Below the pieces are notes generated by a model. The model saw only the letters and a program-made list of their open reading frames with translations. It did no database searches and was not told the origin of the DNA. The translations under genes were made by a program, and so were the position numbers. From contig CAWFJP010000014.1 of NCBI GenBank assembly GCA_963816145.1, forward strand, positions 32,001-96,000: 64,000 nt of DNA. Reading direction: 5' to 3'. Positions 25,593 to 28,762 of the stretch are shown here, in pieces; position 1 is the first letter of the stretch; the number at the start of each line of letters is the position of its first letter. Source of the stretch: an uncultured delta proteobacterium (GTDB lineage: Bacteria; Desulfobacterota; Binatia; UBA9968).

Positions 25593-26471
25593 TTACTCGG
25601 GAGCGCGGATTTCGATCATCACCGCCTCGGCATCGGCGCCCCAGCGTATTGGCAGAAAGACACTGCCCAAACCGCGCGATACAACGAGTTGAGATTTGCC
25701 GAAGCAATAGACTCCTTCGTCCAAACAGTAGCGGCTTTGACGGATGATCGCTGGTCCGTTGGGCAAGCGGATTTGGCCGCCGTGGGTATGTCCGGAGAGG
25801 GTCAGCGGTATGCCAAGTTTCTCGGCTTCGTAGAACTGGTCGGGGTTATGCGCCATCAGAAGATGCGGCGGCCCATGTTTCGCGGTTAGGCGATCCCAAT
25901 CGGGCCGGCCCATGATCCGGTCGTCGATGCCGCCCAAAACGAAACTGGCAGCGCCATGGGAGACGACCGCGCTGTCGTTCTTCAATGTGCGGATGCCGAT
26001 GGCGGCCAGATCGCTGCACAACTCCTCAGGGTCGCCGCCGAAGTAGTCGTGGTTGCCCATGCAATACCACGCGCCTAAGGGCGCCCGTGTCAGCGTCACT
26101 AGGCGGTCGAGAATGCGCTCCGCCTCGCTGACATGACCGGTGACCAGATCGCCACCAATGACAACGAGATCCGGCTCGAGTTCCATCAACTGGCAGAGTA
26201 TCTCCCACAGCGTTTCGGGCGGCAAAAAAATTCCCGCGTGAATATCCGTGATCAGCAGCACGCGCAGCGGCGCCATGCCGGCAGGCCAACCGGCGGGTGA
26301 AAGCTTTGTTTCGGCGAGCTCGAAGCGCCGCGCTAGCTGCCAACTATAGGGATTCCACATCTTGCCGAGCAGCGGATAAATAAAGCGTGAAATGCTTATG
26401 TCGGCGTAGCGCTCGCACAGTTTGATCAACCCCCGATTGGGATTCATCAGACGGCGTTCCTTACCCGTCAT
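25593..26471 (-). CDS. Metallophosphoesterase (YkuE-like)
   Basis: TDIH, GGD, GNHD, AHNPD, SGHTHGGQ. Confidence 0.88.
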   Translation of the reverse strand: MTGKERRLMNPNRGLIKLCERYADISISRFIYPLLGKMWNPYSWQLARRFELAETKLSPAGWPAGMAPLRVLLITDIHAGIFLPPETLWEILCQLMELEPDLVVIGGDLVTGHVSEAERILDRLVTLTRAPLGAWYCMGNHDYFGGDPEELCSDLAAIGIRTLKNDSAVVSHGAASFVLGGIDDRIMGRPDWDRLTAKHGPPHLLMAHNPDQFYEAEKLGIPLTLSGHTHGGQIRLPNGPAIIRQSRYCLDEGVYCFGKSQLVVSRGLGSVFLPIRWGADAEAVMIEIRAPE

Positions 26472-26747
26472 CGCGCGCGGCGGCGCCAGTTGTCGTCGTT
26501 TGAGAATGGCAGTAGCTCTCCGGTTGTCAAAGTCGCCGCGCTGGCAAGGCGGGTTACGGCACAATTCAATGTGCCGGATTTCCGCGGCAGAGACAACGTT
26601 GGGAGTAAGAGCGGCTCGGCAAGCTCATGTTCCAAGTATGATCGCGCGATCGGCTGGAAGCCTCCGTGGTTTATTTGCCGTGGCGCAACTAGGTACGTTG
26701 AGGAGTGCCCCAAGGTAGTCCCGGGGCCACGGTAAACTTGTTCTCCG

Positions 26748-27492
26748 TTAAGCAGGAGCGGGGCGAGTCGTGAAGGAGTTTTTCGCCAGGCGCAAATAGT
26801 CGAAGACGGCGCGGATGTTTCTGTTGAGGCGGCGCATTTTCTGGGTGACGTTTTTGACGCCTTTGGATTGGAGGAGACCGATGGCAAAGCGGCGTAGGCG
26901 TGAAATATTCTCAGGGCCGTAGCCGGTGCGAATGCGACAGCGGTCCTCATCGAAGGCCCAATCGAGAACGTAGTGGCAGCAGTTTTCGATGGTCCAATGG
27001 CCCCGGTTGATTTCGAGCAAGCGCTGGGGCGAGGCCTGCCCAGGAGAACGGCTGGTAATACCGTAGGCGATTTCACGGGAAGTCTTGCCGGTTTTTTTGT
27101 TGAGGGTAATCCGTTCGATGGCAAAGGCTTGGCCGAGGTGAGGGAAGTTGAGATAAGCGTTGAGTTCAGTGGTGGTCCAGATTTGCCGAGTTTCAATGCG
27201 GCCATGATCGGGCGGGTCGTGCATGACAAACTGGGGTTGATGGCGATCGTTGAAGAACAGCACGAGATCGTCAAGGAGCGAGGGCTGATTGGCTTTAACC
27301 GTGAAGTGGTAGTGGGCTTTGCGGGTGCGGACCAAGTAGTCGGCGAGTTTACGTTGGGTGAGAAGGGCATCGGCGGTTAAGTCTTTGCCACACAGATCGA
27401 GGTCATCGAGGAGTGGAATGGCCATGCCGATCTCGTTGGTTTGTTTTAGCTCAGAGGTGTCGCCATGGGCGGGCAGCGAGCCGACTTTTTTT
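26748..27492 (-). CDS. IS ORF B: ISAs1 transposase C-terminal catalytic part, -1 frame relative to ORF A
   Basis: KVGSLP...TNEI...TADALLTQ, VKANQP, HGRIETR, RGHWTIEN..HY.LD..FDED. Confidence 0.88.
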
Positions 27493-28540
27493 GGGTGTAG
27501 CAGATCTTGGAGTGGTGGCCGACCACGCTCATGACGTGAGTTTGATGGTCGTTGTGATCAAGGGCGTTGCGCATGGTTTTGCCGTCGATAGCGAGGGTAG
27601 AGTCCTGTTGAGCAAAGGCTTGATTGTAACGGTTTAGAGCTTTTTCGAGATCGCTGGGAGCCACCCGGATCATGACATCGCGGATGATCGACTCGCTGGG
27701 GACGAGGTATAGTCCGTTCACGTAACGGCAGCGAAATCTCTGGCGGGCCCGAGGCGAGAGGCTGTGGGCCCAGTCGGCGATGGCCTTATAGCCGCGCATG
27801 CCACACAGAGTAGCGGCACAAACAATGGCCAGGACGCAAGCGAGCGAATGGCGTCGTCCTTGGGCGCGGCGCGGATCGGGGATATCGGCAAAGAAGTCCC
27901 AAAGCGAGAGCATCTGTTGCGCGGTGAGTTTCATTTTCACAACTCCTTGGCGATACGGAACTGGCAAGACGCAGGCAGCGAGCAGGGAGCGGGCCTGTTG
28001 GTGTAAGGACTTAACGAAGACTTTTTTCGGTGCGATAGCGGTGTTGCTGTAGCCCTGAGGGGTGCGCCGATAACCACGGGTCAGCCCGAGATAGCTCCAG
28101 TTGGCGGATTGATAGACCGTGCCGACAAAACGTTGGGGGTCGACGAAGGTCTCCAGCAGCAGTAAGGAATGGCCAAAGCGCTCTTGCCAGTCGGCGCACA
28201 GCCGCTTGTGACACAATGATAGAATCTTGGAGCCGAGATTACGGTGGTGCCAATCGGGGAGGATTAAAAACCGGCTGTTGTTGGCGATCAGTTTTAAACG
28301 GTCGTAGTCGTACTGATGGTGCAAGTCCCAGCCGATCCACTGATCGCGCACGGCACATTTCCAGGCGGCGGCTGAAAACGTCAACAGTGCAATCCACTGA
28401 TCGTGATAGGTGGCCACGTACCACAGGGTCTGACCGATCTTGGGTAGATAGCCCAAGTAGTGATGTTCGGTCATCAGGCGACGGTGCAGCGACTCTTCGC
28501 TGCGCTCTGCCACACGGACTTGAACTTGGTCGAGCTTCAA
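27446..28540 (-). CDS. IS ORF A: DUF4338/DruA-like domain fused to ISAs1 transposase N-terminus
   Basis: HHYLGY...RDQWIGW...NNSRFLILP...LLETFVDP.RFVGTVYQSANW; then IPDPRRAQGRRHSL...AIADWA...IDGKTMR. Confidence 0.85.
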   Translation of the reverse strand: MKLDQVQVRVAERSEESLHRRLMTEHHYLGYLPKIGQTLWYVATYHDQWIALLTFSAAAWKCAVRDQWIGWDLHHQYDYDRLKLIANNSRFLILPDWHHRNLGSKILSLCHKRLCADWQERFGHSLLLLETFVDPQRFVGTVYQSANWSYLGLTRGYRRTPQGYSNTAIAPKKVFVKSLHQQARSLLAACVLPVPYRQGVVKMKLTAQQMLSLWDFFADIPDPRRAQGRRHSLACVLAIVCAATLCGMRGYKAIADWAHSLSPRARQRFRCRYVNGLYLVPSESIIRDVMIRVAPSDLEKALNRYNQAFAQQDSTLAIDGKTMRNALDHNDHQTHVMSVVGHHSKICYTQKKSARCPPMATPLS

Positions 28541-28762
28541 CGCTTGCGGCTTCTGCCTTTTCTCGCAAAGTCAGAACCGTTATACAGGATTGTGCAGGGG
28601 ATGTCCAGTTGTATCGAGAATCTTCTTACTCACCGCGAGGTTTATTGCCAGGACAAATTCACCCTGGTCCCGGGGCGAATCGCCTTGACTTTGCGCAGGT
28701 GATTCCCGTATTTTCACTCGCACGATTCGACCCTTGAAGCGTATTTTATCAAGGAGAATTTT

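Follow-up and report, generated by a model that had tools for sequence, protein, structure and literature searches.

Insertion sequences (ISs) are commonly regarded as transposase genes with nothing added, and the ISAs1 family as one with a single open reading frame (ORF). As described in ISfinder, members of this family have CAGGG ends, generate 8–10-bp target-site duplications, measure about 1.2–1.5 kb and encode their transposase in that single ORF. IS1 and IS3 elements, such as IS911 and IS150, produce OrfA and OrfAB by −1 programmed frameshifting at the heptamer A_AAA_AAG, and host Dam adenine methylation at the ends of IS10, IS50 and IS903 ties transposition to replication. Here we analyze a 64,000-nucleotide stretch from an uncultured delta proteobacterium (contig CAWFJP010000014.1, positions 32,001 to 96,000; hereafter the window), which carries a 1,939-bp insertion sequence of the ISAs1 family. 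In common with the family, the element has DDE_Tnp_1_assoc and DDE_Tnp_1 domains covering model positions 1–314, CAGGG/CACGG ends and a 10-bp duplication. It differs in its length of 1.94 kb, in a GNAT domain of ∼200 amino acids placed before the usual N-terminus, and in the use of two overlapping frames. We treat the two-frame arrangement as a variant within the ISAs1 family, finding in it no ground for exclusion. That the window contains a recently mobile ISAs1-family insertion sequence of this architecture is practically certain.

The GNAT domain brings two further systems into the comparison. Phage Mu Mom (8BV8; PF25680) moves glycine from Gly-tRNA(Gly) onto the N6 of adenine in double-stranded DNA. 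The Mom study (PMC13219725) gives R111, S124, D149 and R151 as essential residues and H58, Y59, W48, Y159 and W181 as residues that matter. It describes Mom as an obligate dimer with a required helix-turn-helix (HTH)-like insertion at residues 175–209, deletion of which abolishes activity. Mom residue numbers here follow that study and equal the AF083977 record plus 10, as checked on ten residues. The second system is type I Druantia, whose DruA component shares the domain DUF4338 (Pfam DruA, PF14236) with the window element. Our literature search covered PubMed Central open-access articles and bioRxiv (ISfinder and subscription journals lay outside its scope), and it returned no description of transposase fusions of DUF4338 or of frameshifting in ISAs1, the latter judged by title or abstract. 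The only comment on the DUF4338 domain itself in the literature searched is in PMC10853773, which calls it a GNAT among the variable N-terminal domains of DndF conflict proteins. A preprint reports DruA-like folds in Synechococcus phages, and a YprA/Druantia preprint mentions none of DruA, DUF4338, acetyltransferase and Mom. Database annotators have clearly met the architecture, judging by source names. The window element is a member of a large cross-phylum ISAs1 subgroup that is not described in the literature searched.

The element and its parts have the following positions in the window.

26728..28666, reverse strand: whole insertion sequence, 1,939 bp, ISAs1 family, with limits set by comparison with a second full copy (L002)
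26718..26727, no strand: target-site duplication, copy 1, 10 bp, GTCCCGGGGC, exact repeat
28667..28676, no strand: target-site duplication, copy 2, 10 bp, GTCCCGGGGC, exact repeat
28650..28666, no strand: terminal inverted repeat at the 5′ end of the genes, reading inward CAGGGTGAATTTGTCCT
26728..26744, no strand: terminal inverted repeat at the 3′ end of the genes, reading inward CACGGTAAACTTGTTCT
27446..28540, reverse strand: OrfA, 364 amino acids, TTG start, TAA stop, the zero-frame product, with GNAT domain, ISAs1 DNA-binding domain and start of the DDE domain
27971..28540, reverse strand: Mom/DruA-type GNAT domain, OrfA residues 1 to ∼190 (Pfam DruA, AlphaFold2 model, 8BV8 as top match)
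27626..27901, reverse strand: DDE_Tnp_1_assoc (PF13808), OrfA residues 214–305 (Pfam E 1.3e-20)
27485..27491, reverse strand: slippery heptamer A_AAA_AAG in the OrfA frame, inside the C-A7-G run at 27493–27485, with the proposed −1 shift after OrfA codon 352
26748..27485, reverse strand: OrfB, the −1 frame part, 245 codons plus stop, with the putative second D and the E of the DDE core (ISAs1 model match)

A first-pass annotation of the window had described terminal repeats, a perfect 10-bp duplication and a recent insertion, all of which are borne out. GTCCCGGGGC stands on both sides of the 1,939 bp and has exactly 2 matches within the window, a count of at least 2 being reached in 0 of 100 shuffles. 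The terminal inverted repeats are imperfect, with 13 of the 17 first bases alike by manual count. A second full copy (L002) in the same genome (7.8 Mb, 31 contigs) is also 1,939 bp long, differs by 2 substitutions without gaps (99.9% alike) and lies at a different site within its own perfect 10-bp duplication, CCTTTGATGT. The third copy (L003, G000:C11:420960-425468) is cut at both ends and retains IS positions 261–1769 at 100% identity; its neighbors are a DDE_Tnp_1_4 transposase gene and, at the opposite end, an EamA transporter gene. Elements with ∼61% protein identity share the ends of the window element (CAGGGTGAATTCGTTCC at the 5′ end and CACGGTAAATTTGTTCT at the 3′ end of the genes) and, as in L010, L021, L022 and L045, show fresh 10-bp duplications at differing sites.

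Searches of related genomes gave matches at E≤1e-10 in 7 of 40, all at 30–43% identity, and in 2 of 24 genomes of the same genus, one being G005 (an unpublished genome used for no other claim). The window element itself was thus not found among the relatives searched. Most of the element's 31-mers occur in public sequencing runs (soil, sediment, wetland and plant samples), which were consulted as Logan contigs. At least half of the 31-mers occur in 14 runs, 6 of which may be the source sample, and one sediment DNA contig, obtained from a different sample (X8), spans the complete element without gaps at 8 substitutions. Outside the duplication, the neighbors of the window copy are a metallophosphoesterase (Metallophos) gene and a family-5 solute-binding protein (SBP_bac_5) gene. 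A promoter and terminator scan of the element found no terminators and one promoter-like site, which lies on the opposite strand beyond the IS; shuffles yield at least as many. Several long ORFs on both strands of window positions 26422–27534 overlap the IS genes, for example 26468..27370 (300 amino acids). They look like by-products of G+C-rich coding sequence and are not needed to explain the element.

OrfA carries the motifs HHYLG, NNSRFLILP and ETFVDPQRFVGTVYQSANWSYLG before …DIPDPRR. Pfam DruA matches residues 8–157 (E 8.6e-28, 97.8 bits against a gathering threshold of 27) over profile positions 53–220 of 297 only. Downstream lies DDE_Tnp_1_assoc, the presumed end-binding domain of ISAs1 transposases, and the NCBIfam ISAs1 model NF033564 begins at residue 236. 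These Pfam and NCBIfam matches confirm the in-frame fusion of a DUF4338/DruA domain to the ISAs1 N-terminal DNA-binding domain that the first-pass annotation had recognized. Its expectation that similar fusions exist in databases also proved right, as they are abundant. The nearest database cluster (P0001) is 97% identical to OrfA and likewise 364 amino acids long, and more than 7,000 database clusters match OrfA at E≤1e-5. When residues 1–205 were searched against 1.84 billion cluster representatives (50% identity), 6,219 representatives matched the domain at E≤0.001 and 377 at E≤1e-30.

The first-pass annotation had called the IS intact. This holds for the element, but the transposase is not continuous in frame; the frame break and the conserved A_AAA_AAG site had been missed. 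NF033564 positions 1–116 match OrfA (54.5 bits) while positions 119–314 match the −1 frame downstream, where OrfB scores 133.8 bits (cut-off 70, E 7.5e-39); OrfA and OrfB together cover the model. The OrfB match begins upstream of the first start codon in the −1 frame (ATG at 27425). At the junction, C-AAAAAAA-G at 27493–27485 reads CAA_AAA_AAG in the OrfA frame, which puts A_AAA_AAG in the zero frame. The codon after a −1 slip would be GTC, giving an OrfAB of 352 + 245 = 597 amino acids with the predicted junction peptide …CYTQKK/VGSLPAHGDTSELK. Homology to full-length relatives places the aspartate of AIDGK in OrfA and the aspartate of TADAL and the glutamate of HWTIEN in the −1 frame, and these three residues probably form the DDE triad. 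Because the triad is divided between frames, neither OrfA nor OrfB alone is a complete enzyme on that assignment. The arrangement resembles that of IS1 and IS3 elements in having the same heptamer, a DNA-binding OrfA in the zero frame and a full transposase only after a −1 slip. It differs from them in its transposase family, in the enzyme-like domain of OrfA and in having no supported stimulator.

The frame break is conserved among relatives. A scan of one genome per species gave 52 loci, of which 42 (L004–L045) resemble OrfA over the GNAT part. The OrfB part is present in 37 of these 42, with no OrfB match in L025, L029–L031 and L039, and it lies in the −1 frame in all 37. A_AAA_AAG is kept in the OrfA frame at the homologous place in 35 of the 37, and nearby synonymous positions vary. 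The two exceptions, L007 (CAAAAAGAG) and L044 (CAAACAAAG), both have a truncated OrfB match. The full C-A7-G run is found in 34 of the 35 heptamer-keeping relatives; L032 has six A's only (CGAAAAAAG) and still keeps the heptamer. Zero-frame tails vary, with the stop 19, 34 or 55 nucleotides beyond the reference point, and the −1 frame past the heptamer contains the conserved VGxLP…TNEI before any start codon. Loci with the heptamer have 53–77% identity and come from several phyla. The assemblies that supplied the scanned loci carry the labels Acidobacteriota, Binatia, Gammaproteobacteria, Gemmatimonadota, Ignavibacteria, Desulfobacterota-type deltaproteobacteria, Gemmataceae, Bacteroidales and others. 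The loci were drawn from both short-read and long-read assemblies. Several are copies within one genome and hence not independent, and 28 distinct junction sequences were aligned. No fused form of ∼597 amino acids occurs among the best 120 database clusters (65–97% identical to OrfA, 318–467 amino acids, in a search range of 200–637 amino acids). The fresh 10-bp duplications in relatives with shared ends indicate that frameshift-carrying elements do transpose. From this sequence conservation, a programmed −1 ribosomal frameshift at A_AAA_AAG very probably yields the 597-amino-acid OrfAB.

Some results speak against such a frameshift. RNAalifold on the 28 distinct junction sequences found no consensus pairs, and no Shine-Dalgarno-like motif upstream of the heptamer was seen by eye. 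A hairpin picked by hand downstream of the heptamer has a covariation score that was reached by 173 of 500 shuffles. Contigs from RNA libraries match stretches of OrfB and of the GNAT region at ≥99% and none spans 27485–27493; DNA carry-over is possible in these libraries and we draw no claim from them. The hand-picked structure, a GC hairpin 10–11 nucleotides after the heptamer, was dropped as a candidate stimulator (68.7% of cells pair, shuffle mean 67.7%).

To characterize the N-terminal domain we used an alignment of 71 sequences with 39–84% identity (A2) and a 34-sequence Mom profile (A3). The AlphaFold2 model made from A2 has a mean predicted local distance difference test (pLDDT) value of 91.7 and a predicted template modelling (pTM) score of 0.88, and its topology follows the GNAT order b1-a1-b2-b3-b4-a3-b5-a4-b6-b7. 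In a Foldseek search of the Protein Data Bank (PDB), phage Mu Mom ranks first (8bv8_B, E 6.8e-8, template modelling score 0.60, 15% identity), narrowly ahead of RimI and AAC(6′)-Ib (E ∼1e-7). VIA-align places Mom first by a clearer margin (8bv8_A, Z 15.5, root-mean-square deviation 3.7, 170 residues aligned over model residues 1–190), followed by 49 entries at Z 13.3–12.2. The model thus adopts a GNAT fold with high confidence, and among solved structures phage Mu Mom is nearest to it, in line with the Mom-like fold suggested in the first-pass annotation. Sequence profiles agree in part. Pfam Mom matches 18 of the 71 A2 proteins at E≤0.01 (best 1.9e-8), some relatives exceed its cut-off (for example P0185 with 28.1 bits and L083 with 30.8 bits), and hhalign of A2 gives E 0.0066 against Mu Mom and E 7.5e-4 over 124 columns against A3. 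An ESM Atlas feature search without PF14236 returned Mom-like viral clusters in the top three places; their scores of 0.85–0.87 are under the 0.9 guide and we regard them as a lead only.

Many residues that matter in Mom have putative counterparts in the domain. In the hhalign alignments H27/Y28, S104, D134, R137 and Y143 pair with Mom H58/Y59, S124, D149, R151 and Y159. Among the 71 A2 sequences H27 is kept in 70, Y28 in 68, N101 in 67, S104 in 66 (with Thr in the other 5), D134 in 66 and Y143 in 70, while R65, R90, D117 and E130 are invariant. Since both proteins show the pattern N-(x)-R…[PR]-N-x-x-S, we suggest that R90 is the counterpart of Mom R111. Degenerate catalytic residues across copies, which the first-pass annotation had named as a refuting sign, are not the pattern of A2, where the putative counterparts of Mom's essential residues are largely conserved. 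Ratios of nonsynonymous to synonymous substitution rates (dN/dS) in nine pairs were 0.10–0.20 for the GNAT part, 0.11–0.22 for the DNA-binding part and 0.09–0.22 for the −1 frame part; two of the estimates are saturated, and dS is high in most cases. For L010 and L021, the pair with the least saturation, the ratios were 0.20, 0.22 and 0.18, respectively. The GNAT domain is under purifying selection equal to that on the transposase core. We consider it likely that the domain is a catalytically active GNAT, an acyl- or aminoacyl-transferase with Mom-like chemistry.

This likeness to Mom has to be set against several observations that count the other way. The window domain is just 15–16% identical to Mom. 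Pfam Mom scores on OrfA (20.8 bits, E 3.4e-4) and on the GNAT domain alone (22.8 bits) are below the cut-off of 27.1, and the hhalign probability of A2 with A3 is just 25.5%. Sequence searches of the PDB returned nothing with the domain in phmmer and a chance urease match (E 1.4) with the A2 profile. Hhalign places Mom R111 in a gap, and R137 is kept in just 51 of the 71 A2 sequences. Between beta-6 and beta-7 the model lacks a helical insertion and shows only short strands at residues 153–173, the interval being ∼16 residues compared with ∼38 in Mom by manual count; Mom's own DNA-binding element is consequently missing. Finally, hundreds of ordinary acetyl-CoA GNATs with protein, polyamine or aminoglycoside acceptors reach Z 12–13, so that the fold fixes neither donor nor acceptor. 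In sum, the window domain shares with Mom its closest solved structure, profile cross-matches and conserved putative counterparts of H58/Y59, S124, D149, R151 and Y159. It differs in scoring below the Pfam Mom cut-off, in lacking the helical insertion and in residing inside a transposase, whereas Mom is a free phage protein.

The relationship to type I Druantia DruA (PADLOC PDLC00001/2) consists of the common family PF14236. PADLOC DruA models gave no match to OrfA at E≤0.001 (0 PADLOC families), whereas two canonical DruA proteins from our phylum sample, L066 (G128) and L067 (G063), score 367 and 275 bits. The genes flanking the element include no druB-E; the rest of the genome was not searched for them. 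In a MAFFT alignment the two DruA proteins have no equivalents of H27/Y28, R90, N101, S104 and Y143, a tentative comparison at n = 2 and 19–20% identity. They do share R65-D66…W71, G152 and G156 with the window domain, and they carry a ∼48-residue insertion ahead of the last strand, roughly at the place of Mom's HTH-like insertion. On these sequences Druantia DruA may be catalytically different from the transposon forms.

The domain is not confined to the two-frame ISAs1 element. Among the best 150 of the 6,219 representatives, we scanned with Pfam the 57 proteins of at least 341 amino acids and left out 93 shorter ones. DruA and DDE_Tnp_1_assoc are combined in 52 of the 57. Nine, which are more distant relatives, are single-ORF GNAT-ISAs1 transposases of 556–606 amino acids, an arrangement also seen in L058. 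P0263 (773 amino acids) joins the GNAT to a Tn5-type IS4 transposase, and L064, from a genome of the window's genus, is a 793-amino-acid GNAT-Tn5-like fusion. In P0126 (620 amino acids) the GNAT and DDE_Tnp_1_assoc are followed by a D12 Dam-type N6-adenine methyltransferase that replaces the DDE core (Pfam E 2e-55; PADLOC MTase_II 1.4e-81); P0126, a single cluster, may be domesticated or an artefact of chimeric assembly. A second GNAT-ISAs1 class, comprising 11 of the 57 (P0166, P0179, P0205, P0213, P0224, P0226, P0237, P0245, P0268, P0269 and P0270), ends at DDE_Tnp_1 profile position 110–116, ∼100 residues later than the class of the window.

An even draw across the phylum gave PF14236 matches in 27 of 200 other genomes (28 of 201 with the window's genome). 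The draw yielded 30 loci, 23 of which were scanned; those left out were L086 (the window's own), L087 and L089 (stops or short frames) and L090–L093 (weak and short). A transposase above curated cut-offs is fused or immediately downstream in 12 of the 23 loci, belonging to ISKra4 (L068, L072), IS66 (L073, L079, L083, L085), IS4 (L076 and L081, the latter fused to a Tn5-like transposase), IS701/DDE_5 (L077, L078, L084) and ISAs1 (L088). Four more loci (L075, L082, L080, L095) have sub-threshold transposase matches, and 7 of the 23 (L066, L067, L069, L070, L071, L074, L094) have no transposase match. Separate upstream GNAT ORFs have their own N-terminal extension of ∼90–125 amino acids; in the ISAs1 form the GNAT runs from residue 8 and the transposase's own DNA-binding domain comes after it. 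The survey of IS families bearing the domain, proposed in the first-pass annotation, thus found five: ISAs1, IS4, IS66, IS701 and ISKra4. The GNAT domain is a recurrent transposase module in these five families.

Some loci have further features. In L088:1-1680, which belongs to the second GNAT-ISAs1 class, the reading frame breaks at TTT_CCC_CCC_TGA and the remaining transposase is in the +1 frame. This break resembles a CCC_UGA-type +1 frameshift site and may be a second, independent recoding solution. In G163:C69:1-4874 two GNAT genes (L068, L095) flank one ISKra4-family transposase gene. L063 (G039:C2:2412000-2418500) is a 772-amino-acid ORF with a DruA-type domain near its C-terminus (residues 595–746) and no Pfam family on the first 590; counting two further places, G039 holds it as three open frames of 948 amino acids, which may be another repeated element.

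These observations can be combined into a model. The minor −1 frameshift product OrfAB would be the active transposase, and OrfA would be the major product, joining the GNAT to the end-binding domain much like the regulatory OrfA of IS1 and IS3. The DNA-binding or transposase module would bring the GNAT to the element ends or to the target, where a base mark would license, time or limit transposition. The element would then write its own mark, unlike IS10 and IS50, which depend on host Dam methylation; with these and IS903 the analogy is functional only. In the IS66- and ISKra4-linked forms the GNAT is a gene of its own, as would suit an activity provided in trans and in surplus, and a frameshift in the ISAs1 form would likewise give GNAT in excess and in trans. 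The Dam-type fusion of P0126 may be in keeping with a self-written mark, with the proviso that this single cluster is possibly chimeric. DNA at the element ends or target is our leading guess for the GNAT substrate, held tentatively. We rank it first because the closest characterized enzyme acts on double-stranded DNA and because the Mom insertion is swapped for transposase DNA-binding modules. Proteins, tRNA or small molecules come second and a non-catalytic role a distant third. The combined explanation, a frameshifting ISAs1 element with an active Mom-like GNAT for which DNA is the most likely substrate, seems to us evenly poised between right and wrong.

The frame change could be conserved and yet be transcriptional, with RNA polymerase slipping on the A7 run and adding one A. 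This would give the same OrfAB protein, and it would suit both the full C-A7-G run of nearly all heptamer-keeping relatives and the failure to find support for an RNA stimulator of ribosomal frameshifting. Nevertheless, in 35 of 37 relatives A_AAA_AAG is placed precisely in the zero frame that tandem slippage needs, and L032, which keeps the heptamer with six A's, fits ribosomal slippage better. For transcriptional slippage to be efficient in bacteria, longer runs of about nine are needed. No insertion or deletion shows in the contigs, although they cannot reveal rare variants and none spans the site. We regard a transcriptional origin as unlikely. It is hardly credible that the split is an inactivating frameshift in copies that are dead, mobilized in trans or not mobilized at all. 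Homopolymer runs do mutate easily, and the more distant relatives include the single-ORF GNAT-ISAs1 proteins (9 of 57 scanned; L058). Against this, the same break, frame and heptamer recur across several phyla at 53–77% identity, purifying selection acts on both frames, the present genome and others carry fresh 10-bp duplications at differing sites, and the best 120 clusters contain no fused form.

For the GNAT itself, a less favored but serious possibility is that the enzyme is active on something other than DNA: a protein (the transposase itself, or a nucleoid or repair factor of the host), an aminoacyl-tRNA or a small molecule, in a way that couples transposition to physiology. TacT and AtaT toxins, for instance, act on aminoacyl-tRNA. 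The structural neighbors after Mom (RimI, Naa60, SpeG and AAC(6′), at Z 12.2–13.3 and Foldseek E ∼1e-7) and the missing helical insertion favor such a target, as does the presence of DUF4338 as a GNAT on DndF conflict proteins (PMC10853773). On the other hand, Mom outscores every other GNAT by ∼2 Z units, the essential residues of Mom are matched by conserved ones here, and the loop x-N-L-[AG]-S-[RK] reads to us as closer to R-N-S-E-S-R of Mom than to the CoA-type Q/R-x-x-G-x-G/A; a toxin-like role is also at odds with the absence of an antitoxin-like partner from the 1,939-bp element. The domain might instead be a non-catalytic scaffold that serves the transposase in dimerization, DNA binding or regulation. 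Mom being an obligate dimer (PMC13219725), the GNAT could be kept for assembly alone, and the two canonical DruA proteins suggest that the fold can persist without Mom-like residues. With active-site-type polar residues near-invariant in 71 sequences down to 39% identity, four of them without exception, and with dN/dS of 0.10–0.20 in the GNAT, we judge a scaffold improbable. The first-pass annotation had offered a defence cargo as one alternative, and a GNAT that is Druantia-type anti-phage cargo merely carried by the IS would account for its membership of a family named after DruA; defence genes often travel on mobile elements. This reading is now disfavored and appears very improbable. PADLOC finds no DruA in OrfA and finds it readily in L066 and L067, the neighbors outside the duplication are ordinary, and the domain sits in one chain with the transposase DNA-binding domain and recurs with five transposase families.

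We return to the frameshifting ISAs1 element with a Mom-like GNAT. It presents two unreported features of a large cross-phylum ISAs1 subgroup, a conserved and very probably programmed −1 frameshift and a Mom-like, enzyme-like domain. Annotation pipelines will label such elements frameshifted pseudogenes, 'DruA' or 'GNAT acetyltransferase', and surveys of defence systems based on PF14236 alone will miscount them. The occurrence of the same domain with five unrelated IS families points to a general, unstudied role in transposition. A wider and more doubtful extension is that Mom/DruA-type GNATs are a general accessory module of DDE transposons in at least five IS families, placing an acyl or aminoacyl mark on DNA at ends or targets, with the ISAs1 frameshift setting the OrfA:OrfAB ratio and Druantia DruA, which in the two-sequence alignment has lost the Mom-like residues, being a domesticated offshoot. 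Should the domain prove to mark DNA, a family whose only name comes from Druantia DruA would gain a function and DruA a suggested origin, and these elements would be the first insertion sequences to carry their own epigenetic writer.

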